A DNA stretch of 12,008 bases from assembly GCA_003696835.1 (NCBI GenBank), contig RFHT01000822.1, positions 1-12,008 on the forward strand, in the 5' to 3' direction. Within the stretch, counting starts at the first letter, position 1, and each line of letters opens with the position of its first letter. Made by a program: the position numbers and the translations under genes. Shown here piece after piece: positions 100-12,008 of this stretch. The notes beneath the pieces are model-generated. The model was not told the DNA's origin. It searched no databases and saw nothing but the letters and a program-made list of their open reading frames with translations. This stretch comes from Bacteroidota bacterium (GTDB taxonomy: Bacteria; Bacteroidota; Bacteroidia; J057).

Positions 100-1896
100 T
101 TACCGGATTACAAATTTGTGTACCTTTCGCACCACATTGGCCTGCACAAAACGGGCCACGTACAAGCCCGGCGGCTGATGGAGGCGGATAGTTTGGGAAT
201 TAGCTGGCAGCAGTTGACGGGTATGCACCAGTTGTCCCAGTGCATTGAACACCTCCAGCCTCAGGGGGGTAGCAATCCCTTCCAATTCAACAGTAAAGCG
301 TCCGGTATTGGGGTTGGGGTAAAGGCGGATGGCTTCTTCTTCAGGCATGTTAGGCGAAAGGCCCACACTTAAGCAGATGGGCCGGTTTTGCAGCCCGCTT
401 TCACAGGTGTAAAAATTAATGACGTCGGTGTGAATACCTGCGTACAGCAGGGAGTCGGCTTCCAGCAGGAGCTGCACAGCATCCTCCATGCTCATTCCGA
501 TGCTGTTGGCATACATTTGCTGCAGGGCAATGCGGTCGGCAGCTTCTGCACCTATCTCTTGCCTGATGCGCATGAGGGTGGAAGCCCAGATTTCCCCATA
601 GGCGTAAATGTTTCGCTGCTCAGGCGGGTAGGTGTTGAGGGTGGCAGCATCCCGCCCACTCCAGAATTCGTTGTGTCCATCCCAGTTGAAGAGCTTGTTC
701 CACTCAAAGGGGTCGATGTCCTGGGAGTAACGCGCGGCCAGGTAGTCCCCAATTCCTTCATCCAGGGCACGGCGTTCGAATCCGCTGAGGGTACCGGGTG
801 CTGCCGCATAAGAAAGGGCGTGCCCATACTCGTGAATGATGACGTCGGCATCTTCGGCATCATCTACGCCCCCTTCTCCATATTTGATATAGGAGTTGGG
901 GCCGTTTGGGATGAAAGCAGAATTATCGCCGGTAGAGCCGTGGGCATCTACCCGGAAAGGGCCATTCTGGAGGTTGGTGAACCCCAACGACTGCACGTAG
1001 CGCTGAAAGCGGTCAATGTGGTAATACACCATCACATCTTCAAAGCCACTGCTGTCGCGCCTGAAGAAAAAATTGCCGTCGGTGGAACTTACTGGCTGGC
1101 GGTTGGGACTGGTGATATCCTCTACTTTCACGTAGGGCCCCTGCAGCAAGAATCGCCCCTGTTCAAATGTGAGGTCATTAAGAACGACTGTATCCATCAG
1201 ACTTTCCAGTATGGCCTGGTGCTGGTCATTATTGTCGATAAACAGATCGCCATAAGCTACCTTTGCCTTTGTGCAAGGGTTGGGCATGAAAACCCTGCCT
1301 CTGCCACTGGTATCGGCAGGGTGCGCATAGCGGTTTTGGTCTTCCCGCAGCAGCAGTTCCCCACTTTGGGCATGAAAGAGCAGGAGTTCATTTCGTCCAC
1401 TGTCTTCTTCAAAACGGTGCAACTGAAAGACGGGCAGGCTTTTGCCTTTTTGCAACAGATAACATGCCTGGAATTTTCCTGCATCAACTCCCAGCTTTTC
1501 GGCTGTGCTTCTGGCTACAGCTTCTTCCCGCGGTCCAAAATCCGGGAGGCTTTGCCCGGGCAGGTCTTTGAGGTAATTCATCACCGATATAACCTCCCCT
1601 TTGCGATTGAGGTTGACTTTAATGCCCCCGTTGAAGACGGGGAAGCTTCCGTAATGCTGCCCAAACGTATAGTGCCACCCACCCGGGCTTTGTACTTCGT
1701 ACAAAAGGCTGAGGGTGTATTTGCCCTGGCGGAGCAGGGGAATTTTGGTGCGCAAAAACGACTGCAAGGCAAGTTCGGAGCGCCCGGGAAGCGCATAAGG
1801 CTGCATGCGCTGATATACGCCTGGCGACTGGGGATATGCCTGCAAGCAAGCAAGCAAAGCCAGCAGCAAACTGAGATGTGTTAAATGAGTTTTCAT
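100..1896 (-). CDS. Secreted zinc metalloprotease (gluzincin-type HExxH...ExxxD) with T9SS C-terminal sorting domain
   Basis: Track ORF 100..1902 starts at GTG. The ATG at 1894-1896 gives a classic signal peptide, MKTHLTHLSLLLALLACLQAYPQ. HEYGH is encoded at nt 820-834 (minus), followed by ALDEGIGDY, an ExxxD candidate for the third zinc ligand; it resembles the HEYTHG...ExxxD pattern of M4/M36 proteases. The C-terminal ~77 aa, 'IRLYPNPNTGRFTVELEG...LPPGLYVARF...RKVHKFVIR', fit the Por/T9SS C-terminal-domain pattern. The plus-strand 498-aa ORF at 388..1884 is its antisense shadow. Confidence 0.85.
   Translation of the reverse strand: MKTHLTHLSLLLALLACLQAYPQSPGVYQRMQPYALPGRSELALQSFLRTKIPLLRQGKYTLSLLYEVQSPGGWHYTFGQHYGSFPVFNGGIKVNLNRKGEVISVMNYLKDLPGQSLPDFGPREEAVARSTAEKLGVDAGKFQACYLLQKGKSLPVFQLHRFEEDSGRNELLLFHAQSGELLLREDQNRYAHPADTSGRGRVFMPNPCTKAKVAYGDLFIDNNDQHQAILESLMDTVVLNDLTFEQGRFLLQGPYVKVEDITSPNRQPVSSTDGNFFFRRDSSGFEDVMVYYHIDRFQRYVQSLGFTNLQNGPFRVDAHGSTGDNSAFIPNGPNSYIKYGEGGVDDAEDADVIIHEYGHALSYAAAPGTLSGFERRALDEGIGDYLAARYSQDIDPFEWNKLFNWDGHNEFWSGRDAATLNTYPPEQRNIYAYGEIWASTLMRIRQEIGAEAADRIALQQMYANSIGMSMEDAVQLLLEADSLLYAGIHTDVINFYTCESGLQNRPICLSVGLSPNMPEEEAIRLYPNPNTGRFTVELEGIATPLRLEVFNALGQLVHTRQLLPANSQTIRLHQPPGLYVARFVQANVVRKVHKFVIR
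103..333 (-). other. T9SS (Por secretion) C-terminal sorting domain of the metalloprotease
   Basis: This covers the last ~77 codons, with the 'YPNPxxGxFTVE' beta-strand motif near the domain start and a K/R-rich hydrophobic terminus. The pattern is characteristic of Bacteroidota T9SS cargo. Confidence 0.65.
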
Positions 1897-1908
1897 ACCC
1901 ACTCTTTC

Positions 1909-2499
1909 CTAAGCTAATACGTCAACTTCCAGTCCTGCATCCTTCAATTTCTGGTACAAGCCGGGGAATTCCCCCTCATAAATAGCTAACGTCTGCGTAC
2001 AGCTATCCGTGTAAGTTGCATCCACCAGCTCAGTGTCATAAGGATGTAAGATACGATTAATTTCTGAAGTTTGGGAATAGGGAAAATGCAGGCGGAAGGT
2101 AATTTTGGGCACCAGGGGTTCTCTGGCCAGGCCCTCCAGGGCTGCTTCGGCAGCCGAACGGTATGCCTCAATGAGGCCTCTGATGCCCAGTTTGGTCCCC
2201 CCGAAGTAGCGAACCACCACGACCAGCACATTGGTGAGCTCCGCAGCATGTATGGCTGCCAGTATGGGCGGGCCCGCGCTGTGGGTGGGCTCGCGGTCGT
2301 CGGTGGCATACGCTTCTTCTCCCTTTGCTCCCAGCCGCCAGGCATAGCAATGGTGGCGGGCGTCGTAATACTTTTTTTTCAGCTCACGCAGCCGCTGCCC
2401 AATTTCTTCCTGGCTGTGCACCGGGAAAGCAAAGCTGTAAAACTTCGACCCCCGGTCTTTGACCAGTCCTTCTCCTGCTTCTTTTAGTTGGAACAACAC
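1909..2499 (-). CDS. yigZ: YigZ / IMPACT family protein (UPF0029 N-terminal domain plus C-terminal DUF1949-like domain)
   Basis: The 196-aa ORF carries family-diagnostic motifs, 'DRGSKFYSF', 'DARHHCYAWRLG' and 'VVVVRYFGGTKLGIRGL', which align to E. coli YigZ (KKSRFIT / DARHHCVAW / VVVRYYGGILLG). The track start is GTG at 2497-2499. The stop at 1909-1911 lies only 7 nt from the protease GTG/ATG, so the two genes are probably co-transcribed. Confidence 0.85.
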   Translation of the reverse strand: MLFQLKEAGEGLVKDRGSKFYSFAFPVHSQEEIGQRLRELKKKYYDARHHCYAWRLGAKGEEAYATDDREPTHSAGPPILAAIHAAELTNVLVVVVRYFGGTKLGIRGLIEAYRSAAEAALEGLAREPLVPKITFRLHFPYSQTSEINRILHPYDTELVDATYTDSCTQTLAIYEGEFPGLYQKLKDAGLEVDVLA

Positions 2500-2556
2500 G
2501 CTTTCAGGATTAGTTTTTCAACTCATTAGCTCTGCCTGCACATGCGGGTTCAGCAC

Positions 2557-4425
2557 TTATCGTTTTTCAAATACCCCCGCGCCAGGCTGATTTTCCTTTC
2601 CCCTCCAGTCGGGTTGCCAGAAGAGGGTACTCTCGTGCATGCCCTCCATATCAAAGTCTCTGACTATCACATTCAGCCGGAAGCGTTGCCAGCTGCCCCC
2701 ATAGCGTTCATCCAGGTAAGTAAGGGGGATGGCTACTTCGGCAATGTAACCACCTTCGGTAGTTTTGCACGCCCATTTTGTTCCCTCTGGCAGGCGGCCG
2801 TGCCCCTGCACGCTGCCGCCCTTGGCGGCGCTCAGCCCCACGACCAGGGCATTGCGCCAGTTGGCTGCGGAGGTAGCAGCCGCAGGCGTAGGGTCCAGAA
2901 TAAATGCCAACCCGTCCTGCTCCAATGCATTTTTATGCTCATCCAATTCCAGCTGATCGTCCCACACTTCTGCAGCCAGGTACAAAAAGGTATCATCATA
3001 TTGTACGTCAAAGGCAAAAGAGGCATCCTGGCTTCCCTGATAGGCAAAAGGGGAAGCCTGCACAAATTCGGCCTCTTCAATGCGCTGCGAAAGCTGCGGC
3101 CAGTCGGTCAGTCGGCCATCTATTTGCACAGCCCCGGCTGCCCTGCTTATATCGTAAATGGGTTGGGGCTTCAACAGGTAGCTGAAGTTCATTTCCAGCT
3201 CAGCTTGCTCCGGGGGCAGGTACACCACCCGGGCTTTCAACTGCACGGGCTGCATCTCCTCAAGGGGAATAATCACGTCCTCTTTGGACCTCAGAGGCAG
3301 GTCCACCAACTCCACAGAGTTGGGGGGCAGGCTGCGCTCAAAAGGTGCAAAGGCTGCCCATAGGTCCTCATTGGAAACGGCTTCCACAAACACTTTCATG
3401 GGTACTTCGCTGTCGTTGGTGATGCGCAGCCTGGCAGCCCGCCCGGAAAATATTGCTTCGCCCTCCAGCAGGCCTTCAATCAGCAGGGGCTCCTTGTTCA
3501 TCAGGGGGCGGGTAAGGGCATAACGCGCTTCGGTATTCACGTTCTGGTCCCATATTCCGTCCAGTAGCAGGTTGGCAATGATGGGGCCTTCATCCGTCAT
3601 ACTTACCCACACCACGTGGTCAAACTCTCCAAAGGCGGACCCTCTGAGGCTGCTGCCCCCTCCGGTAGTGGCCAAAATAAAGTAGTTGGACGCATTGCGG
3701 CTGTATTTGACATAACGGTGCCTGTGCCCGGCAAATACCGTGTGTTTCCGGCCCTGCAGCAAGCGCTCTACTTCGGGCCAGAGACCGGGGTCTTCCTGAT
3801 CCCAGAGGGGCTGGTGCAAAAACACCAGGGTCCACTTCACGCCGGGGTGCTCCTCCAGCACCTGACGTATATAGGCCAGCTGAGGCTCGTCTATGTAGCC
3901 TTTGCCCGAGCCGCGCATGCGTTCCTCTGAGTTGAGACACAAAAACAGCACCTCTTTGTACACAAAATGATAATAATCCCTGCCAAAGCGCTCCTTCCAT
4001 TTCCTGGCCATCACTTCATTGATGTAGTCGTGGTTGCCGGGCACATAGAAAAAGGGCGCCTGCAGGCCGGAAATAAAACCCGTGAACTCCTCCCATTCCT
4101 GGTCGATACGGGCTTCATCTTCTGTGTAGCCCTCGATGAGGTCGCCCACACTCATGACAAACTCCGGCTGCAGTAAGTTGAGCTTTTCAATGGCCGTGGG
4201 GAATACGCCCGGGCGATGCCCGCCCGTGCGGTCGGTCACAATGGCAAACTGAAAAGTAGCCGGGGCATTGTTTACCCGCAAATGACTCCAGGGATTCTGT
4301 TCTCCCTGGGTGTTGACCAGGATACGGGCCTGCTGGCTACACAAGCATACAGGCCACAGCAACAACAGGAAGACAACCCCCTGCACTAGTTGTAATTTTT
4401 GCATTTTGGGAAAAAGTTTTGCCAT
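2557..4425 (-). CDS. Secreted calcineurin-like metallophosphoesterase with C-terminal CBM9/DOMON-like carbohydrate-binding-type domain
   Basis: The N-terminal half carries metallophosphoesterase motifs: IVTDRTGGH, GDLIEGYTED, GNHDY, FLHQP and GHRHRY. The C-terminal ~300 aa contain 'IDGRLTDWPQ' and 'FAFDVQYDDTFLYLAAEVWDD', as in family-9 CBM-like domains. Track ORF 2557..4497 starts at M1, but the signal peptide (MQKLQLVQGVVFLLLLWPVCLCSQQA) follows M25 (ATG 4423-4425) and M32 (ATG 4402-4404). I place the true start at 4425 or 4404 and treat 4426-4497 as AT-rich promoter, not coding sequence. Confidence 0.8.
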   Translation of the reverse strand: MAKLFPKMQKLQLVQGVVFLLLLWPVCLCSQQARILVNTQGEQNPWSHLRVNNAPATFQFAIVTDRTGGHRPGVFPTAIEKLNLLQPEFVMSVGDLIEGYTEDEARIDQEWEEFTGFISGLQAPFFYVPGNHDYINEVMARKWKERFGRDYYHFVYKEVLFLCLNSEERMRGSGKGYIDEPQLAYIRQVLEEHPGVKWTLVFLHQPLWDQEDPGLWPEVERLLQGRKHTVFAGHRHRYVKYSRNASNYFILATTGGGSSLRGSAFGEFDHVVWVSMTDEGPIIANLLLDGIWDQNVNTEARYALTRPLMNKEPLLIEGLLEGEAIFSGRAARLRITNDSEVPMKVFVEAVSNEDLWAAFAPFERSLPPNSVELVDLPLRSKEDVIIPLEEMQPVQLKARVVYLPPEQAELEMNFSYLLKPQPIYDISRAAGAVQIDGRLTDWPQLSQRIEEAEFVQASPFAYQGSQDASFAFDVQYDDTFLYLAAEVWDDQLELDEHKNALEQDGLAFILDPTPAAATSAANWRNALVVGLSAAKGGSVQGHGRLPEGTKWACKTTEGGYIAEVAIPLTYLDERYGGSWQRFRLNVIVRDFDMEGMHESTLFWQPDWRGKENQPGAGVFEKR

Positions 4426-4474
4426 TTTTTCAAACATTTTAAAGTAGCCGTCGTAAAAGAATTTGATACATGAT

Positions 4475-4491
4475 TTAACACATTGTGTTAA
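4475..4491. promoter_or_regulatory. 17-bp perfect inverted repeat TTAACACA-t-TGTGTTAA in the divergent promoter region (candidate operator)
   Basis: Reading directly: the 8-bp arms TTAACACA and TGTGTTAA are reverse complements around a single central T. The site lies in AT-rich DNA just upstream of the plausible start of the metallophosphoesterase gene, within the divergent intergenic region. Confidence 0.35.
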
Positions 4492-4585
4492 ATTCATACA
4501 TTCTTATATTTTATTATCAACCCTATGAATAGACTACTTCAGCAAAGAATTTTAAACACCTCCCCTCCCGCTGTTACTGGCTAGT

Positions 4586-4599
4586 TCCTACTTTGCACA
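4586..4599 (+). promoter_or_regulatory. Shared 14-nt motif TCCTACTTTGCACA, copy 1 (276 nt upstream of the YqiJ-like gene)
   Basis: An identical 14-mer is present at 7878-7891. The match extends to 15 of 16 positions (gtTCCTACTTTGCACA versus gcTCCTACTTTGCACA). It contains TTTG, like the Bacteroidota -33 promoter element. Confidence 0.3.
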
Positions 4600-4875: not shown

Positions 4876-5565
4876 ATGACCGAACTTTTTCATCTCGCTT
4901 TTTCAGCTCCCCACCTGCCCTACACCATGCTGTTGCTGCTTATTCTGCTGTACTGGATGACGGTGATCATTGGGGCCCTGGATCTGGACTTTCTCAACAT
5001 TGAAGTTGACACGCCCGATATGGACCTGGATGCAGATATCGATATGGACTTAGACACAGAAGTGGAGGTGGATACAGAGGTGGAGGCTGGCCAGGAGGTT
5101 GCGGCTGGCGGGGGGGCATGGCTGCTGAAAACCCTGGCCTTTTTCAATATAGGCAAGGTGCCCTTTATGGTATTTTTGAGCATGTTTGTACTGGCGCTTT
5201 GGGTATCTTCTGTGCTCAATTATCACTACTGGGGACACGCCTTCAAGGATTTTTTCGCCTGGTGGTTTTTGCCCAATGTGCTCATTGGTCTCTTTGCTGC
5301 CCGGCTGCTTACCGCGCCATTTAAAGGTACATTTGCCACCATGAACCAGGAAGGCCGTAGTAAGCGGGAACTGGTGGGAAAAACCGGCGAGGTGGTGATG
5401 CGCATAGGAGCGGGAAAAATAGGCCGCCTGGAGGTCTTTGATGGCGAAGAACATTACAGCCTGGACGTAAAGGCAGCAGGCAACAAGGTGATAGAAAAAG
5501 GTCAGCAAGCCATAATAGTAGAGTATAATCCCCAAAAGGATATGTACCTGGTAGAACCCTTTTGA
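4876..5565 (+). CDS. YqiJ-like / NfeD-like inner-membrane protein (N-terminal TM, acidic linker, two TM helices, C-terminal OB-fold beta-barrel)
   Basis: This 229-aa ORF has a hydrophobic N-terminal helix (MLLLLILLYWMTVIIGAL) and a central pair of TM helices (FMVFLSMFVLALWVSSVL / FLPNVLIGLFAARLL). Its C-terminal ~70 aa, 'GKTGEVVMRIGAGKIGRLEVFDGEEHYSLDVKAAGNKVIEKGQQAIIVEYNPQKDMYLVEP', match the NfeD/YqiJ OB-fold tail in pattern and size (E. coli YqiJ is about 209 aa). It sits immediately upstream of a flotillin gene, as in yqiJK and yuaF-floT. Confidence 0.75.
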   Translation: MTELFHLAFSAPHLPYTMLLLLILLYWMTVIIGALDLDFLNIEVDTPDMDLDADIDMDLDTEVEVDTEVEAGQEVAAGGGAWLLKTLAFFNIGKVPFMVFLSMFVLALWVSSVLNYHYWGHAFKDFFAWWFLPNVLIGLFAARLLTAPFKGTFATMNQEGRSKRELVGKTGEVVMRIGAGKIGRLEVFDGEEHYSLDVKAAGNKVIEKGQQAIIVEYNPQKDMYLVEPF

Positions 5566-5621
5566 GATCGTTAAGCATTATTTTTTATTCCTCTTCACTC
5601 AACCAACAATTTAATTAGATC

Positions 5622-7832
5622 ATGGATAGTATGTTAACTTCAGTTCTGATCGTAAGCGGCAGCATCATTGCCATTGTAGCGCTGGGGTTCATTATTGGAA
5701 TCTCAAGCTTTTACCGCAAGGTCACACAGGGAAAAGCACTGGTGAGAACCGGATTTGGAAAAACCAAAGTGGCATTTAAGGGGATGTGGGTCATTCCTCT
5801 GCTGCACAATGTGGAGATCATGGACACCTCCCTTAAGCAGGTTACGATCAGTCGGGAAGGCAAAGACGGCCTGATATGCCAGGACAATCTGCGGGCCGAC
5901 ATCAAAGTCGTCTTTTTTGTGCGGGTAAACTCCACCATGGATGATGTCAAGCGGGTGGCCAGTACCATAGGCTGTGCCCGAGCCTCAGATCCCGAGCTGC
6001 TTATCACCCTGTTTGAAGCCAAATTTTCCGAAGCCCTCAAAACCATTGGTAAGCAGTTTGACTTTGTAGAGCTGTACAATGCAAGGGAAAAATTCCGGGA
6101 GGAAATCATCAATCTCATTGGCCGTGACCTCAACGGCTACCTGCTGGACGATGCCGCCATCGACTATCTCGAACAAACGCCCATAGAATACCTGGATGAA
6201 GACAACATACTCGATGCCGAGGGGATCAAGAAAATCCGTGATCTGACGGCCAGGCAAATAACGCTGGCCAACAAAATTCAGCGCGAAAAGGAAAAAGAGA
6301 TCAAGAAGCAGGATGTAGAAGCCCAGGAGGCCATACTGGAACTGGAAAAGCAGTTGGTAGAAAAAGAAGAAATACAGAAAAAGGAAATTGCCTCCATACG
6401 GGCGCGGGAGCTTTCCGAAACGCGCACCATACAGGAGCAGGAATCGGAAAAGGCCGAACTGGCCCGCATTGCCAAAGAGCGCAGCCTGAAAATTGAGAAA
6501 GAAAATATGGAGCGCGACATCATTGTGGCTCTGAAAAACAAAGAACGGACCGATGTAATCGAAACTGAAAAGGTGAAGCGCGACCAGGAGCTGGAAATGA
6601 CTGAAAGGGAGCGCATTGTATCCATTGCCCAGATTGAAAAAGAAAAGGCCATTGAAGAGGAGAAAAAGAACATACAGGATGTGATACGCGACCGGGTAGC
6701 CGTGGAGCGCGAAGTGGTAGAAGAACAGGAGAAGATCAAAAATACCGAGGCCTTTGCAGCGGCCGAACGTGATAAAAAAGTGGCCATCACCCAGGCTGAG
6801 CAAAAAGCAGAAGAAGAGCTGGTACAAAAGATCAAAGCGGCCGAGGCCGACAAACAGGCAGCCTCTTTGGAGGCAGACCGCCGCATCATCTCGGCCAATG
6901 CGGAGCGCGAAGCGGTGGATAAGGAAGCCGAGGCCAAGAAAATCATGGCCGACGCCCTGGCTGAGGAGCATGCCGCCATCGGCCTGGCCGAAGCCCGCGT
7001 AATGGAAGCCAAAGCCCAGGCCAAAGAAAAAGAAGGCGAAGCCGAAGCCAGCATACTGGAACAAAAGGCCCTGGCCGAAGCCAAAGGCATAGAAATGAAA
7101 GGCCAGGCACAGGCCGGTGCCAACCAAAAACTGGGGCAGGTAGAGGCCCAGCTCAACATTGACAAAGGCCTGGCCGAAGCCACAGTCATAGAAGCCAAAG
7201 CCCAGGCCCAAAAGAAAATGGGGCTCACCGAGGCCGAAATCATCGAACAAAAAGGCGTAGCCGAAGCCAAAATTGTAGAGCAGAAAGGCCTAGCCGAAGC
7301 CAAAGGCGTAGCAGCCAAAGCCAAAGCCATGCAGGAGCTCGATGGCGTGGGCCGCGAACACGAGGAGTTTAAATTAAGACTCGAAAAAGAAAAAGCCATT
7401 GAGCTGGCCGGCATTGAAATTCAAAAAGACATAGCCGCAGCCCAGGCACAGGTGCTGGCTGAGGCCCTCAAATCTGCCAATATTGACATCGTGGGTGGCG
7501 AACAGGAGTTCTTCGAGCGAATTACCCATGCCGTCAGCCACGGAAAATACATGGACCGCCTGCTGGATAACAGCCAGCATTTGCTGGACGTAAAGAAGGC
7601 CCTCCTGGGCAATGGAAAAGAAAATGGGGACTTTGGCCAAAATCTTCGTAAATTTATCGCCCAGTTTAGTCTTTCTTCCGAGGATATCAAAAACCTGAGT
7701 ATTTCTGCCCTTATTTACAAAATGATGGAACAGACCTCAGACCCCGGCAAGAAAAATGTACTGCAGCAGTTGTTGGCTTCCGCTACCCAACTGGGAATTG
7801 ATGGCAAGAAGATTGACAGCATTTCTGCTTAG
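5622..7832 (+). CDS. Flotillin-like SPFH/band-7 protein (YqiK/FloT-like) with extended EA-rich coiled-coil
   Basis: This 736-aa ORF starts with an N-terminal TM helix (VLIVSGSIIAIVALGFIIGI). An SPFH domain follows ('KALVRTGFGKTKVAFKGMWVIPLLHNVEIMDTSLKQVTISREG...ADIKVVFFVRV'), then a ~350-aa E/K/A-rich coiled coil with EA repeats. The flotillin-type C-terminus 'ANIDIVGGEQEFFERI' is present. Minus-strand ORFs 5985..7250 and 6278..7414 are low-complexity shadows of the repeat region. Confidence 0.85.
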   Translation: MDSMLTSVLIVSGSIIAIVALGFIIGISSFYRKVTQGKALVRTGFGKTKVAFKGMWVIPLLHNVEIMDTSLKQVTISREGKDGLICQDNLRADIKVVFFVRVNSTMDDVKRVASTIGCARASDPELLITLFEAKFSEALKTIGKQFDFVELYNAREKFREEIINLIGRDLNGYLLDDAAIDYLEQTPIEYLDEDNILDAEGIKKIRDLTARQITLANKIQREKEKEIKKQDVEAQEAILELEKQLVEKEEIQKKEIASIRARELSETRTIQEQESEKAELARIAKERSLKIEKENMERDIIVALKNKERTDVIETEKVKRDQELEMTERERIVSIAQIEKEKAIEEEKKNIQDVIRDRVAVEREVVEEQEKIKNTEAFAAAERDKKVAITQAEQKAEEELVQKIKAAEADKQAASLEADRRIISANAEREAVDKEAEAKKIMADALAEEHAAIGLAEARVMEAKAQAKEKEGEAEASILEQKALAEAKGIEMKGQAQAGANQKLGQVEAQLNIDKGLAEATVIEAKAQAQKKMGLTEAEIIEQKGVAEAKIVEQKGLAEAKGVAAKAKAMQELDGVGREHEEFKLRLEKEKAIELAGIEIQKDIAAAQAQVLAEALKSANIDIVGGEQEFFERITHAVSHGKYMDRLLDNSQHLLDVKKALLGNGKENGDFGQNLRKFIAQFSLSSEDIKNLSISALIYKMMEQTSDPGKKNVLQQLLASATQLGIDGKKIDSISA
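6981..7330 (+). repeat. Intragenic imperfect tandem repeats (EA-repeat coiled-coil region of the flotillin gene)
   Basis: Units such as gccgaagccaaagcccaggcc, ggcctggccgaagcc and gccgaagccaaaggc recur. They encode reiterated 'GLAEA(K/R/T)x(I/V)EAKAQA' and 'EQKG(L/V)AEAKG(I/V)' modules. Confidence 0.6.
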
Positions 7833-7877
7833 ACAAGCCTCAACAAAATGGAGTGTTGAAGTATGGAAGCATCGGGC

Positions 7878-7891
7878 TCCTACTTTGCACA
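7878..7891 (+). promoter_or_regulatory. Shared 14-nt motif TCCTACTTTGCACA, copy 2 (92 nt upstream of the lipoprotein gene)
   Basis: This is identical to 4586-4599. It lies in the 150-bp gap between the flotillin and lipoprotein genes. Confidence 0.3.
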
Positions 7892-7982
7892 GCGATGTGA
7901 TTAACATTATACCCACTTGATGTGAACATATTTTGACACTCCTCTTTCCCTCTGCCGACTACCAGCCATTTAGCCACCCAAT

Positions 7983-8618
7983 ATGCTAGCTATGCCCAGG
8001 TTGTTCATGTTGATCCCTCTGTTTTTGCTCTTGTTTGCCTGTGGAGAAGGAAGGCAACAGCATGCCCCCCCCAGCCGTATTCAACGCATTGTACAGCTGG
8101 CTGCCGACTCTTCTGCCCTTAGGCGGTACGTACAGCTACAGGAGGGCGATATACAGTTTGAACAAATGCAGTGGACAGCCGTGAGCCCGGCAGAAAAAGG
8201 CTATTCCTATATGGAAATTTACAATGTATATGAAGCGGCTGATGGCAGCAGGGAGTACTATGTGCTGGAGTTTGAGCTGGATACCACCCAGCTGCAGGCC
8301 CGCCAACCCATTACGGACTATCAGTTGGTTGTAAAGCCCGACACTGCTTTTATTCAGTTGGAAGAACAAGCGGTATTTCAACTGGAAAAAAAATTGCTGC
8401 TGCAGGCCGGAGGCCAGCAGTTTGAGGTATATAAACTGCTGGGATTCCGGCATCCGCAGGACCGGGAAGCTGTTCACTACAAATACTGGAGTCCTGAATT
8501 TGGCACCTTGCTCATTTATTCTGGCGAAAAGGAGACATTTGAACTGACTGCAGACCCGCACAGGCAGGAAGCCATTCCCCAACTGATTGATGCCATTAAA
8601 CGAGATATTCATCCTTAA
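7983..8618 (+). CDS. Hypothetical lipoprotein
   Basis: This 211-aa ORF begins with a lipoprotein-type signal peptide, MLAMPRLFMLIPLFLLLFAC, which has an LFAC lipobox. The alternative start at M4 (7992) gives MPRLFML.... No family is recognisable from the rest of the sequence. The gene lies 150 bp after the flotillin gene and 18 bp before the giant ORF, on the same strand. Confidence 0.6.
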   Translation: MLAMPRLFMLIPLFLLLFACGEGRQQHAPPSRIQRIVQLAADSSALRRYVQLQEGDIQFEQMQWTAVSPAEKGYSYMEIYNVYEAADGSREYYVLEFELDTTQLQARQPITDYQLVVKPDTAFIQLEEQAVFQLEKKLLLQAGGQQFEVYKLLGFRHPQDREAVHYKYWSPEFGTLLIYSGEKETFELTADPHRQEAIPQLIDAIKRDIHP

Positions 8619-8636
8619 CCTCATTATTTGCTGCAC

Positions 8637-11600
8637 ATGGCTGATGTAAAAAATGCCCCGGCCCCAAAAACGGAACTTGAAGGGAGCACCTACCAGATCA
8701 TACAAAAACGCCTGAAAAAACAGGCCGCCCTCTTACAAGAGCAGCTGAACCAACTCAACGAAAGCCGCAAACAAGTATTTGGGGCCGTAGAAACCCGCCT
8801 GGTGGGCACCAACCGCATTACCACTGCCAACAACTGCATTCCCAAAGACATGGTTTCTGTCGGCAAGCAGTTCTTGTTTGGCTACAATGTTCACATTGGG
8901 CTGCGGTCGGAGATCAGGCTGGAAGATGTCTTCAGCCTTTATCGCTTTGAAGCCGAAGATCATAGTTTCCATCAGCAGGAGCTATCTCTCCTGGCCGACA
9001 AGCAGTTTGAAGAAGACTTCAAAAACCTCTATAAGTATTACAAGCATACCGTCTTTGCCAAATTTGCCCTGGTCGGACCGCATTTATTCATGGTATTTCA
9101 GGTGGGCAAGGGTCCGGGGGATGTCAAAACCTTCAAGTGGGCGCTGCAGGAGCACAGCCTCAGCTACCTGGGCAACCGCTTCGACCACGAATACAAGTTT
9201 CCCGATCAGCACGAGTTTGTGTGGAAACGCACCAACCGCGACATGCACCGCAGGGGCAAGCACCCCCATATCTCCATTCTCGACCGGGTATTTGTAGAAA
9301 CGGTGGGGGGAGACCTCACCATAAAGGTGGAGGACAATACCGATAGCGGCCAGGGCATATACGCCGAAGAGGTGACCCACAAAGAGCAAACCCTGGACGA
9401 TGCCGAAGTGGCCTACGCCGACCTGGGCAACCTCATCGTATTGCGCATACGTCCCTACCAGGAAAAGACTTACCGCTACTTCATTTTCAACGAAAAAATG
9501 CAGGAAGCCCTGCGGGTGGACAGCCTCGAACACGCCTGCGTGCTGCTACCCGATGAGCAGGGCCTCATTTTTGCCAACGGTTACTACCTGCAAACTGGTG
9601 AATACAAAATTTTTGACCACGCCATACAAGACCTGCAGTTCGAAAGACGCATAAGTTCTCCCAATGGAGAGGATTTCCTCTATGTTTTTTACAATCCCCA
9701 TACGGGCCTTTACGTGCTGCTGCAGTACAACCTGGTTAACCAGCAGGTAGCTACTCCAATTTTATGTCATGGGTTTTCTCTGTTCAGCAATGGAGAATTG
9801 TGCTACTTCCGGGCCGAAGACCAGCCCGGCAGGCATCACACCCTCCAAATTTGGCAAACGCCCTATACCCGCACAGAGATACGTACACAGGAACATACAG
9901 ACTCCTACCTCTTCAAGATAGGCAACAAGGACATTGTGCGTGCCATGGCCGAATGCAATGAGTTGCTTACCCTCATCCACAAAGGCGACACTTATACCAA
10001 TCTTTATATAGACCTGGTGCAGCATACCCAAAGCATGCTGGACAGTTATTACTGGATCAAACACCCCGAGGCAGGTGCTCTGGGTGAGCCCCTGCAAGCC
10101 ATTGGGCAAATAGCTGCTGCGGCCATAGATGAATTCGAAAAAGTGCGCCGTATCCGCCAACATACTGAAGAAGCAATACAAGCCGCAACGGATCGCCTGG
10201 AGCAATTGCTGCATCAGATTAAAAGGCACAAGGCCAAAAGCATTGAGCAGTATGTGCACCACCTGGCCGAATTGCGGCTGCTCAGGGGAGAAATCATTGG
10301 CCTGAAAGAGTTACGATACGCTAATACCGAAAAAATTGAACTGCTGGAGCAGCAAGTGGCCGGGCAAACCCAGAAACTCTCAGCAGACTGCATACAATTT
10401 TTGCTCAAAGATACTGCCCTGGCCCCCTACCGGGAACAGCTTTTACAGCATGAAGCTGCCATTGCCAAAGTCGAAAAAGTGGCCCAGGCCCGGGAAGCGG
10501 CCAAAGCCATTGACCAAACCGCAGGCGAACTCGAGCTGCTTATTGAGGTAGTGAGCAACCTCAAAATTGAGGATGCCACCGAAACTACCCGCATTATTGA
10601 GCAAATTTCGGATATTTATGCAGGCGTAAACCAGCTCAGGGCCCGCCTCAAGACCCGCCGCAAAGCCTTGCTGAGCCAGGAAGCCACTGCCGAGTTTCAG
10701 GCCCAGCTGAAATTGCTGGAGCAGGCGGTGGTCAACTACCTCGAATTGTGCGACAGCCCCCCCAAATGTGACGAATACCTCACCAAGCTCATGGTGCAGC
10801 TCGAAGAGCTGGAAGGAAAGTTTACTGAGTTTGATGAATTTGCCGATCAGCTGGCCCAAAAACGGGAGGAAATCTACCAGGCTTTTGAATCCAGAAAACT
10901 CAGCCTTACCGAAGCCCGAAACAAACGCGCCAACAACCTCCTGAAGGCCGCCGAACGCATACTGAAGGGCATACAAAACCGCCTGGCTGCTTACGAAGAA
11001 GTGAAGCAGATCCATGCCTACTTTGCCTCTGACCTCATGGTTGAGAAAGTGCGCGATATCATTGCCCAACTGCAAGCCCTTGAAGACAGCGTAAAGGCCG
11101 GCGATATTCAGGCGCGCCTTAAAAGCGTAAAAGAAGACGCCATTCGGCAGCTTAAAGACAAAAATGAGCTCTTCGTAGCCGGCAACAACCTCATACAGTT
11201 TGGCAGGCATCATTTCAGTGTCAATATTCAGCCCCTGGACCTTACCCTGCTTCCGCGCGAAGGCCAGATGTATGTACACCTTAGCGGCACCAATTTCTTT
11301 GAACAAATCGACCAGCCCGAACTGGAGAAAACCCGGGCAGTATGGGAGCAAAGCCTCCTCTCGGAAAACCAGCAGGTATATCGGGCTGAGTATCTCGCCT
11401 GGCAGATGTTTCAGACCGGGCAGTTTCCCCAGGATACCACACTTCCCGGCCTGCAGCAAAGCCTCAGAAAATTTATGGTCACCCGCTACCAGGAAGGCTA
11501 TACCAAAGGGATACACGATGCCGATGCCGCACGCATCCTGCACGAGCTCATACAACTGCATGCCCGGATCGACCTGCTAAGGTATGCTCCCCGGGCCCGG

Positions 11601-12008
11601 GCCTGTGCCTCCCTTTACTGGCATAGCCTCATGGGGGCCGACGAAAAACAGCTCATGAGCAGCCGTCTCAAAGGGGTCGGCATCATTTTGGAGCTCTTTC
11701 CTGATACCCGCGAGTTTGGCGACCTCGTTACTGATTTGCAGGAACACATCCGCATGTTTACGGCCCGCAGCCACCTTTTTGAGGAGGGCTTGGCCCTCGA
11801 AGCAGGCGAATACCTCTTTTTTGAGCTCAGCCGGGGCCAGCACTTCATCATCAGCCTGGAAGCTGCAGAGCTGTACCAATCCTTTCAGGCTTTTTTGAAA
11901 AAGCAAAAGATTAAGAGCAAGTTTGACCAAAGCATCGCACAACTCGCACATGCACCTGAAGAGCGCTTTGACCTGATCAGGAGCTGGCTCAGTGCCTTTA
12001 CCGCCCAG
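8637..12008 (+). CDS. Large hypothetical protein of at least 1124 aa, 3'-truncated by the window end; no recognisable catalytic or nucleotide-binding motif; N-terminal beta-rich repeat-like region followed by a long alpha-helical/coiled-coil region
   Basis: Manual frame-0 translation from the ATG at 8637-8639 (MADVKNAPAPKTELEGSTYQIIQKRLKK...) reaches nt 12008 without a stop, giving 1124 codons. It is absent from the ORF track, presumably because it has no in-window stop. The track lists only out-of-frame plus-strand fragments and minus-strand shadow ORFs there (9084..9533, 9762..10262, 10443..11561, 11577..11951). No frame-0 ORF is listed anywhere downstream of 8616, which agrees with a single open frame. 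I found no GxxxxGK[ST] motif. Confidence 0.8.
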   Translation, partial: MADVKNAPAPKTELEGSTYQIIQKRLKKQAALLQEQLNQLNESRKQVFGAVETRLVGTNRITTANNCIPKDMVSVGKQFLFGYNVHIGLRSEIRLEDVFSLYRFEAEDHSFHQQELSLLADKQFEEDFKNLYKYYKHTVFAKFALVGPHLFMVFQVGKGPGDVKTFKWALQEHSLSYLGNRFDHEYKFPDQHEFVWKRTNRDMHRRGKHPHISILDRVFVETVGGDLTIKVEDNTDSGQGIYAEEVTHKEQTLDDAEVAYADLGNLIVLRIRPYQEKTYRYFIFNEKMQEALRVDSLEHACVLLPDEQGLIFANGYYLQTGEYKIFDHAIQDLQFERRISSPNGEDFLYVFYNPHTGLYVLLQYNLVNQQVATPILCHGFSLFSNGELCYFRAEDQPGRHHTLQIWQTPYTRTEIRTQEHTDSYLFKIGNKDIVRAMAECNELLTLIHKGDTYTNLYIDLVQHTQSMLDSYYWIKHPEAGALGEPLQAIGQIAAAAIDEFEKVRRIRQHTEEAIQAATDRLEQLLHQIKRHKAKSIEQYVHHLAELRLLRGEIIGLKELRYANTEKIELLEQQVAGQTQKLSADCIQFLLKDTALAPYREQLLQHEAAIAKVEKVAQAREAAKAIDQTAGELELLIEVVSNLKIEDATETTRIIEQISDIYAGVNQLRARLKTRRKALLSQEATAEFQAQLKLLEQAVVNYLELCDSPPKCDEYLTKLMVQLEELEGKFTEFDEFADQLAQKREEIYQAFESRKLSLTEARNKRANNLLKAAERILKGIQNRLAAYEEVKQIHAYFASDLMVEKVRDIIAQLQALEDSVKAGDIQARLKSVKEDAIRQLKDKNELFVAGNNLIQFGRHHFSVNIQPLDLTLLPREGQMYVHLSGTNFFEQIDQPELEKTRAVWEQSLLSENQQVYRAEYLAWQMFQTGQFPQDTTLPGLQQSLRKFMVTRYQEGYTKGIHDADAARILHELIQLHARIDLLRYAPRARACASLYWHSLMGADEKQLMSSRLKGVGIILELFPDTREFGDLVTDLQEHIRMFTARSHLFEEGLALEAGEYLFFELSRGQHFIISLEAAELYQSFQAFLKKQKIKSKFDQSIAQLAHAPEERFDLIRSWLSAFTAQ

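Follow-up and report, generated by a model that had tools for sequence, protein, structure and literature searches.

The window analysed here, a stretch of 12,008 bp that makes up the entire contig RFHT01000822.1 of a Bacteroidetes metagenome-assembled genome (MAG), carries on its + strand four open reading frames (ORFs) in tandem, predicted to encode a YqiJ-like membrane protein, a divergent flotillin, a small lipoprotein-like protein and the 5' part of a giant AAA+ protein. The relationship among these four genes is the subject of this report:

4876-5565, + strand: gene 1, 229 aa
5622-7832, + strand: gene 2, 736 aa
7983-8618, + strand: gene 3, 211 aa
8637 to beyond 12008, + strand: gene 4, 5' part, 1124 codons with no stop, contig end reached

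The gaps between genes 1-2, 2-3 and 3-4 measure 56, 150 and 18 bp, in exact agreement with the co-directional arrangement described in the initial annotation of this DNA.

Gene 1 has stretches of hydrophobic residues, an acidic loop rich in D-x-D and a soluble C-terminal domain. Its score against the Pfam YqiJ_N profile, 21.8 bits, falls slightly below the 23-bit cut-off; the same profile is matched by 18 of the 47 members of its family (best E 3.6e-8), and hhalign aligned the family profile with Escherichia coli YqiJ over 184 columns, nearly the full length (probability 96.8%, E 3e-10). By these comparisons gene 1 is a predicted YqiJ/YuaF (NfeD-like) membrane protein. Gene 2 is anchored in the membrane at its N-terminus and has an SPFH domain, a long coiled coil rich in E, K and A, and a conserved C-terminal part. 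The single protein retrieved no Pfam family even at E≤10, an NCBIfam scan was also empty, and phmmer found nothing among PDB sequences. A profile of its family, built from 49 homologues, aligned with E. coli YqiK at a probability of 100% (E 5e-42) over 390 columns that run from the anchor through the SPFH domain into the coiled coil and end at about residue 429, and it weakly resembles QmcA (PDB 8z5g). Band_7 is matched by 5 of the 49 family members (best E 3.3e-13), and Flot (PF15975) by neither gene 2 at E≤10 nor any of the 49 homologues at E≤0.01; Ravi et al. (PMC11237479), via more sensitive methods, label the corresponding region 'TM-Flotillin'. Profile homology thus marks gene 2 as a predicted YqiK-type flotillin (SPFH) protein, and the proposed pairing of a YqiJ/NfeD-like protein with a flotillin is borne out, with the qualification that the flotillin is a divergent one. 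Inside gene 2, at 6001-7500, the window shows a strong positive AT skew (0.35-0.53), which probably reflects the A-rich codons of the Glu/Lys/Ala-rich coiled coil and not a replication signal.

The initial annotation had described the product of gene 4 as a coiled-coil-rich protein lacking an ATPase motif. No such motif is seen in the window because gene 4 runs off the contig at residue 1124, and the reported lack is therefore an artefact of the contig end. The deposited record calls the product 'AAA family ATPase, partial', NCBI names the protein 'DNA repair ATPase', and two Pfam families are recognisable within it:

8733-10052, + strand: DUF3686 (PF12458), gene 4 residues 33-472, E 2e-193; predicted β-propeller
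10416-10664, + strand: DUF7902 (PF25472), gene 4 residues 594-676, E 1.5e-28; inside the helical/coiled-coil region

Homologues that are 52-67% identical to gene 4 measure about 1600-1700 aa and, among the matches listed, all carry an AAA/AAA_5 annotation. In the alignment of full-length homologues a near-invariant Walker A motif (SPPGYGKTT) and Walker B motif ([LIV]DDIQH) lie past the point at which the window ends. Going by these homologues, a C-terminal AAA+ module is almost certainly present in the intact gene, and gene 4 as seen here is best described as the first 1124 residues of a predicted DUF3686/DUF7902 AAA+ protein of ~1620-1660 aa. The family is large: more than 6000 matches were obtained at the level of 90%-identity clusters, and at 50% identity 1423 clusters reached E≤1e-3. 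Gene 4 has no signal peptide, and no protease or other effector domain was found in the window proteins or in the precomputed Pfam annotation of the homologues.

In an AlphaFold2 model of residues 1-1124, with a predicted local distance difference test score (pLDDT) of 81, the chain starts with a helix and continues through a β-domain (residues 54-407) and long helices that take up ~420 residues to a small β-domain and, last, a helical domain. The β-rich residues 54-407 are modelled at a pLDDT of ~85-93 and the long helical/coiled-coil region at ~424-845. Foldseek matched the β-domain to the β-propellers of Elp1, oligopeptidases, CyRPA and PON1 at a probability of ~1, and the DUF3686 region is predicted from this model to be a β-propeller. 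The term coiled-coil-rich therefore suits the helical region but not the first ~470 residues, which are DUF3686. Foldseek matches of gene 4 to dynein heavy chains were discarded as long-helix matches (query TM-score 0.12), and phmmer of gene 4 against PDB sequences gave nothing useful.

We then examined the genomic context of the ATPase. One genome per GTDB species was scanned for its relatives, of which there were at least 502, and the best 80 loci were analysed; ORFs were called in all loci, and homologues of the window genes, PspA and CesT were mapped with iterated hidden Markov models. Linkage was counted over the 69 loci (loci are denoted by L numbers) with at least 3.1 kb of DNA upstream of the ATPase gene. 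A flotillin gene lies upstream of the ATPase gene on the same strand in 66 of them, and the complete succession of YqiJ-like, flotillin and ATPase genes is present in 64, so that conservation of the neighbourhood, which the initial annotation had put forward as a check, is confirmed for the giant gene. The best 80 loci belong to Bacteroidota, Planctomycetota, Verrucomicrobiota, Desulfobacterota, Clostridia and Fibrobacterota. The three-gene order is also kept in L089 and L090, where the homologues are 26-28% identical and the upstream genes were identified by profile comparison. Besides the operon genes and the regulator of the PspA-bearing form discussed below, other neighbour families each occur in at most about 10 loci; because they seldom recur, the linkage of flotillin and ATPase is not mere synteny of close relatives. 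On this evidence of gene order, the triad is a real, strongly conserved operon, predicted to couple a YqiJ-like/flotillin scaffold to a giant AAA+ protein.

This linkage bears directly on the name of the ATPase family. The Pfam text for DUF3686 ('ATPase involved in DNA repair'), the NCBI name and faint RuvB_N matches would together make gene 4 a DNA-repair ATPase whose adjacency to flotillin has no functional meaning. Such a role is hard to reconcile with linkage to membrane proteins in 66 of 69 loci and in six phyla; moreover, the name has no traceable experimental basis in the literature, and the protein showed neither a DNA-binding nor a nuclease domain. With the name unsupported in the literature and the similarity to RuvB and p97 limited to the P-loop stretch, we reject this explanation as extremely unlikely.

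Departures from the usual triad were seen in individual loci. In L062 (9926-15241), from a Rubripirellula MAG, the ATPase frame is broken into pieces of 776, 57 and 887 aa, which may reflect a pseudogene or an assembly frameshift. In some relatives an extra, short Band_7 paralogue of 183-191 aa stands between the YqiJ-like and the long flotillin genes; it aligns to the N-terminal SPFH part of gene 2, three of its four representatives have a precomputed Pfam Band_7 match, and the window is without one:

L001 4240-4809; L007 6975-7526; L086 209-778; L088 2693-3268: short Band_7 paralogue

The core of this arrangement has been published. Ravi et al. (mSystems 2024; preprint 2020; PMC11237479) describe CesT/Tir-PspA operons with three further genes, including a YqiJ/YuaF protein with three transmembrane segments. 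Section 19 and Table S3 of that work give the architecture as YqiJ-YuaF, then Band-7+coiled-coil+flotillin, then β-propeller+coiled-coil+AAA-ATPase, with or without CesT/Tir-PspA, and Table S3 has an entry for the prototype, the neighbourhood of Dokdonia donghaensis ANH61663.1. The abbreviated operons without CesT-PspA are called 'more widely distributed', and ATP-dependent membrane dynamics are predicted for the system; the description given in these sections is computational only. Popp et al. 2022 (PMC9239133) likewise linked PspA with band-7/FloT and NfeD.

Both forms were recovered in our survey. Among the 66 loci with at least 6 kb of upstream DNA, PspA stands immediately upstream of the YqiJ-like gene in 23, all of them Bacteroidota, and a CesT/Tir-like gene precedes PspA in 22 of these 23. 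A gene of ~258 aa encoding an XRE-type helix-turn-helix (HTH) protein with an S24 peptidase (LexA-like) domain lies near CesT-PspA in 21 loci, on the opposite strand in L004 (2867-3661, - strand); it agrees with the '<-cHTH+Protease' entry in Table S3 of Ravi et al., and its product is a candidate self-cleaving regulator. These loci correspond to the full form as published, and the remainder of the survey includes the abbreviated form. The window shares with the published operon the three core genes, their order and the domain architecture of each, the AAA+ part being known from full-length homologues. It differs from the full form in having no CesT/Tir, no PspA and no divergent cHTH-S24 regulator. 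Because a divergent metallophosphatase/CBM9 gene, and neither PspA nor CesT, precedes gene 1, the window falls into the abbreviated class: it is the PspA-less 'abbreviated' form of the published operon. A second difference is the additional lipoprotein gene between flotillin and ATPase, which the available text of Ravi et al. leaves unmentioned. The initial annotation had placed both the giant protein and the lipoprotein outside the known flotillin/NfeD module; this has to be withdrawn for the giant protein, which is part of the operon of Ravi et al. 2024. The lipoprotein is new.

The genes upstream of the operon, at 100-4497 on the - strand, are unrelated to it:

100-1902, - strand: M36-like metallopeptidase that ends in a type IX secretion sorting domain
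1909-2499, - strand: UPF0029/IMPACT-family protein
2557-4497, - strand: calcineurin-like phosphoesterase (metallophosphatase) fused to a CBM9 domain, divergent from gene 1

A composite arrangement was observed in L003 (13077-17203; Fulvivirgaceae bacterium BMA10), in which the ATPase gene is followed by DUF4178, lipoprotein-like, DUF350 and spermine-synthase-like genes. These four genes are typical members of the other PspA-associated operon that Ravi et al. describe, their second type, and L003 thus joins both types. It also has GPP34, DUF5687 and ABC ATPase genes between flotillin and ATPase.

Gene 3, the element that sets the window apart from the published operon, has a signal-like N-terminus in which hydrophobic residues 7-20 end in LLFAC, and the Cys of this stretch is invariant in an alignment of five full-length family members. 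Both features sustain the original call of a small lipoprotein, and we treat gene 3 as a predicted, lipoprotein-like product whose lipobox is atypical at position -2 (Phe). The deposited protein (P0121) has 195 aa, implying a TTG start at 8031. Because that start drops the signal segment retained in full-length homologues, ATG 7983, or a nearby ATG, is more plausible. In the structural model the mature part forms a calycin-like up-and-down β-barrel with helices on its flanks. Gene 3 alone had no match in Pfam or NCBIfam, and a homologue search with the single sequence returned only itself. The proteins encoded at the equivalent position in L001 and L002 are 31-33% identical to it by pairwise BLASTP (E ~1e-30), and a five-sequence profile run against 5.8 billion proteins defined a family of nine clusters. 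Compared with Pontibacter sp. G13, the window proteins are 33% (gene 1), 66% (gene 2), 31% (gene 3) and 58% (gene 4) identical, the divergence of gene 3 being much greater than that of flotillin and ATPase.

The position of this family is constant and its distribution narrow. In all eight contexts examined it directly follows the flotillin gene, and it precedes the ATPase gene wherever the contig reaches that far; only 5 of 85 loci (84 fetched plus the window) contain it. The 'extended membrane-microdomain system' that the initial annotation had envisaged, should the neighbourhood prove conserved, is real, though computationally described before; it keeps the giant protein, linked in six phyla, and loses the lipoprotein as a general component. 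Flotillin and ATPase genes are at most 200 bp apart in 33 of the 66 loci with flotillin upstream, and elsewhere unrelated small genes fill the slot. Gene 3 is confined to one clade. It is most likely an accessory of that lineage, possibly with a hydrophobic ligand, or else a mere passenger in an insertion-tolerant slot.

The slot itself yielded several further observations. The small genes that occupy it in other lineages were considered as remote gene 3 homologues and rejected (hhalign probability <10%); they include other lipoproteins and membrane proteins. Three small families recur in the slot, each set acquired independently: one in L014, L044 and L082, one in L016, L018 and L026, and one in L039, L058 and L076. 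Judged by eye from their N-terminal sequences, the slot families resemble RAYT/IS200-like, DUF559-like and GxxExxY-like genes, some of them selfish-looking, and the slot may be an insertion hotspot. In a sub-clade, the gene 3 homologue is immediately preceded by a member of another family of small lipoproteins (~143 aa, with ...LSACNGP... near the N-terminus):

L005 6992-7423; L087 8244-8672; L088 6035-6472: ~143-aa lipoprotein, giving two lipoproteins between flotillin and ATPase

Whether the four genes form a single transcription unit was assessed from the signals in and around the gaps. A consensus scan found no canonical + strand terminator (hairpin/T-run) in any of the three gaps, as the initial annotation had noted; the only + strand terminator-like matches, at 5273, 9656 and 9668, are all intragenic. 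Rfam and tRNA scans of the window gave no matches. Three elements are of interest upstream of genes 1 and 3:

4586-4599, + strand: 14-mer TCCTACTTTGCACA, copy 1, intergenic, 290 nt 5' of the gene 1 start; candidate promoter/operator
7878-7891, + strand: 14-mer TCCTACTTTGCACA, copy 2, exact, 105 nt 5' of the gene 3 start; possible internal promoter/operator
arms 7845-7865 and 7927-7947, + strand: imperfect inverted repeat in the gene 2-gene 3 gap, enclosing copy 2 of the 14-mer

The window holds two exact copies of the 14-mer, whereas 0.10 would be expected even with two mismatches allowed. It includes TACTTTG, a near-match of the Bacteroidota -7 promoter consensus TAnnTTTG, and may represent a promoter that was duplicated or an operator common to both sites. 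The consensus precedes gene 1 in the relatives L001, L002, L087 and L088, and no equivalent motif was seen 5' of gene 3 in the relatives of the window. The inverted repeat has 21-nt arms that are 76% complementary, a 61-nt loop and no T-run after it; its RNA fold has a z-score of -2.07, with 7 of 200 shuffles folding equally well or better, and it may serve in processing or attenuation or have arisen by chance. Because the inverted repeat and a copy of TCCTACTTTGCACA coincide in the 150-bp gap, an internal promoter or processing site there stays a candidate.

These signals are the basis for a division into two transcription units, with genes 1 and 2 as a yqiJK-like pair and genes 3 and 4 driven by an internal promoter, so that the lipoprotein would be a partner of the ATPase. 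The 14-mer, with its near-consensus -7 box, stands before both gene 1 and gene 3, the 150-bp gap holds a structured inverted repeat, and genes 3 and 4 are separated by only 18 bp. Against this, that gap has no canonical terminator, relatives show TAnnTTTG before gene 1 only, and the 33 of 66 loci with a flotillin-ATPase spacing of at most 200 bp leave no room for a separate unit. We consider the division distinctly unlikely, and an internal promoter would in any case leave the functional coupling intact.

Taken together, the reading we hold to be probable is that the window carries an abbreviated operon in which a flotillin/YqiJ-like scaffold and a giant ATPase take part in remodelling at the inner membrane, the lipoprotein being a clade-specific insert. 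Its topology can be approached from the sequences: the YqiK homology and the basic residues that follow the N-terminal hydrophobic segment place the bulk of the flotillin in the cytoplasm; since gene 4 has no signal peptide, it should occupy the same compartment, and the lipoprotein, if exported, would therefore make no direct contact with the cytoplasmic flotillin bulk and the ATPase. The SPFH domain and coiled coil would let the flotillin oligomerise, giving a cup or cage that sits on the cytoplasmic side of the inner membrane (flotillin cages are known; PMC11260169), with the YqiJ-like partner in or at the flotillin membrane patch. The giant ATPase may dock through its propeller or coiled coil, and ATP hydrolysis would then assemble, disassemble or extract at the scaffold, acting on the flotillin itself, on PspA/ESCRT-III-like polymers or on client membrane proteins. 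PspA, encoded in cis in other genomes, would presumably be supplied in trans here, and the whole machine could be part of an envelope-stress or membrane-maintenance response.

Several points weigh against this reading. At three of the 69 loci (L011, L013 and L023) the ATPase gene has no flotillin pair nearby, and PspA and CesT genes were not found in the 12-kb window. Gene 2 of the window, taken alone, misses both Pfam Band_7 and Flot. Transcription may have a second start at the promoter-like TCCTACTTTGCACA ahead of gene 3, and co-transcription is here only predicted. We found no solved structure that resembles the gene 4 family beyond the P-loop stretch, and a full-text literature search returned neither experimental work on any member of that family or on the operon architecture nor a paper naming DUF3686, PF12458 or DUF7902. 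The substrate and the direction of ATPase action we purely infer.

A variant concerned with membrane protein quality control has to be weighed beside it. Here the microdomain would confine damaged membrane proteins, and the propeller-AAA+ protein, as an unfoldase or extractase, would clear or refold them in the manner of FtsH without its protease. Cooperation between SPFH and AAA+ proteins is established for HflK/C-FtsH, which supplies a precedent for an SPFH assembly working with an AAA+ machine (PMC13220708), and in staphylococci the microdomains formed by flotillin reportedly confine unfolded proteins and stabilise them (PMC11222466). β-Propellers are, in addition, common as substrate-recognition modules, and that of gene 4 is like the gating propellers of oligopeptidases. 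What speaks against such a role is that neither the window nor the precomputed Pfam annotation of the homologues contains a protease or effector domain, and that the recurrent cis-linkage is to PspA/CesT, not to proteases or chaperones. We regard client quality control as possible, if rather unlikely; it is a variant of the remodelling model and inseparable from it in the present data.

A bolder version makes the triad a 'flotillin-cage machine', in which the propeller-AAA+ protein would be the missing remodeller of flotillin or PspA, comparable to Vps4 or to FtsH in HflK/C, and in which the orphan calycin-like lipoprotein of the window's small clade would sense a hydrophobic molecule of the envelope from the periplasmic side and signal via the YqiJ-like partner. 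We put this forward as a speculative scheme and think it unlikely.

A role in anti-phage defence or another kind of conflict, the former also raised by the initial annotation as a defence role, was considered. Defence systems characteristically employ large NTPases that have several domains and repeat sensors. In such a scheme the NTPase, with its sensor propeller and tethered by flotillin, would trigger membrane-level abortive infection. Two neighbourhoods are in keeping with this idea: the solo locus L013, with a neighbour bearing a DNA-methyltransferase-like N-terminal motif, and the distant locus L090, with HipA, TelA and RNA-ligase neighbours (Pfam). Searches against the known anti-phage models of PADLOC-DB 2.0, however, gave no match for genes 1-3 and a single weak 'Cyclase' match for gene 4 (E 5e-5, 20.7 bits), located in the coiled-coil stretch. 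No nuclease or toxin effector was detected, the flanking genes are ordinary housekeeping genes that are not conserved, the recurrent partners are PspA/CesT rather than defence genes, and the operon appears stably inherited in families such as Hymenobacteraceae and Flavobacteriaceae. On the PADLOC result, which holds no defence signature, and on the neighbourhoods, we reject the defence role as highly improbable.

To our knowledge, no ATP-driven assembly or disassembly factor has been established for bacterial flotillins or PspA polymers. Given its near-obligatory linkage to the YqiJ/flotillin pair, the gene 4 family is a good candidate for such a factor, an idea that is already in the literature as a prediction. 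The coupling of flotillin, YqiJ and giant ATPase has been known since the comparative genomics of 2024, and only the small lipoprotein, present in few close relatives, is new. What the present analysis adds is a quantified linkage (64-66 of 69 loci), a link between the published operon and both the Pfam families DUF3686/DUF7902 and the database name 'DNA repair ATPase', which misleads, and a tiny orphan lipoprotein family found only inside this operon. Cultured organisms carry both versions, for example Pontibacter sp. G13 (CP134696, locus L002) for the four-gene form and Hymenobacter, Leeuwenhoekiella, Maribacter and Aquimarina for the PspA form, which would make experiments feasible.

Comparison with other characterised systems places the triad among, and apart from, several precedents. 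E. coli yqiJ-yqiK and Bacillus subtilis yuaF-floT have a homologous, adjacent pair of NfeD-like and flotillin genes in the same order. In E. coli, unlike the window, no giant ATPase gene follows yqiJK, and the sibD/ibsD loci come next; gene 2 is also longer than YqiK (736 aa, YqiK 553 aa) and has diverged beyond the reach of Pfam Band_7/Flot. HflK and HflC, which are exposed to the periplasm, form an SPFH cage around the AAA+ protease FtsH, itself anchored in the membrane. The triad, in contrast, has a YqiK-like flotillin that is predicted to face the cytoplasm and a soluble ATPase without a protease domain and with a propeller and coiled coil; homology between the two systems is confined to the SPFH and P-loop folds. 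The likeness lies in the functional coupling of an SPFH membrane assembly to an AAA+ machine (PMC13220708). ESCRT-III/Vps4 and PspA-PspF provide a further parallel. A Vps4-like ATPase appears, according to a review, to be absent in bacteria (PMC7619361), and the present ATPase differs from Vps4 in its propeller N-terminus and lack of an MIT domain match, and from PspF in having no HTH match. Its linkage in cis, in 23 of 66 loci, to PspA, a relative of ESCRT-III, nonetheless suggests an analogous logic of polymer and ATPase (PMC11237479).

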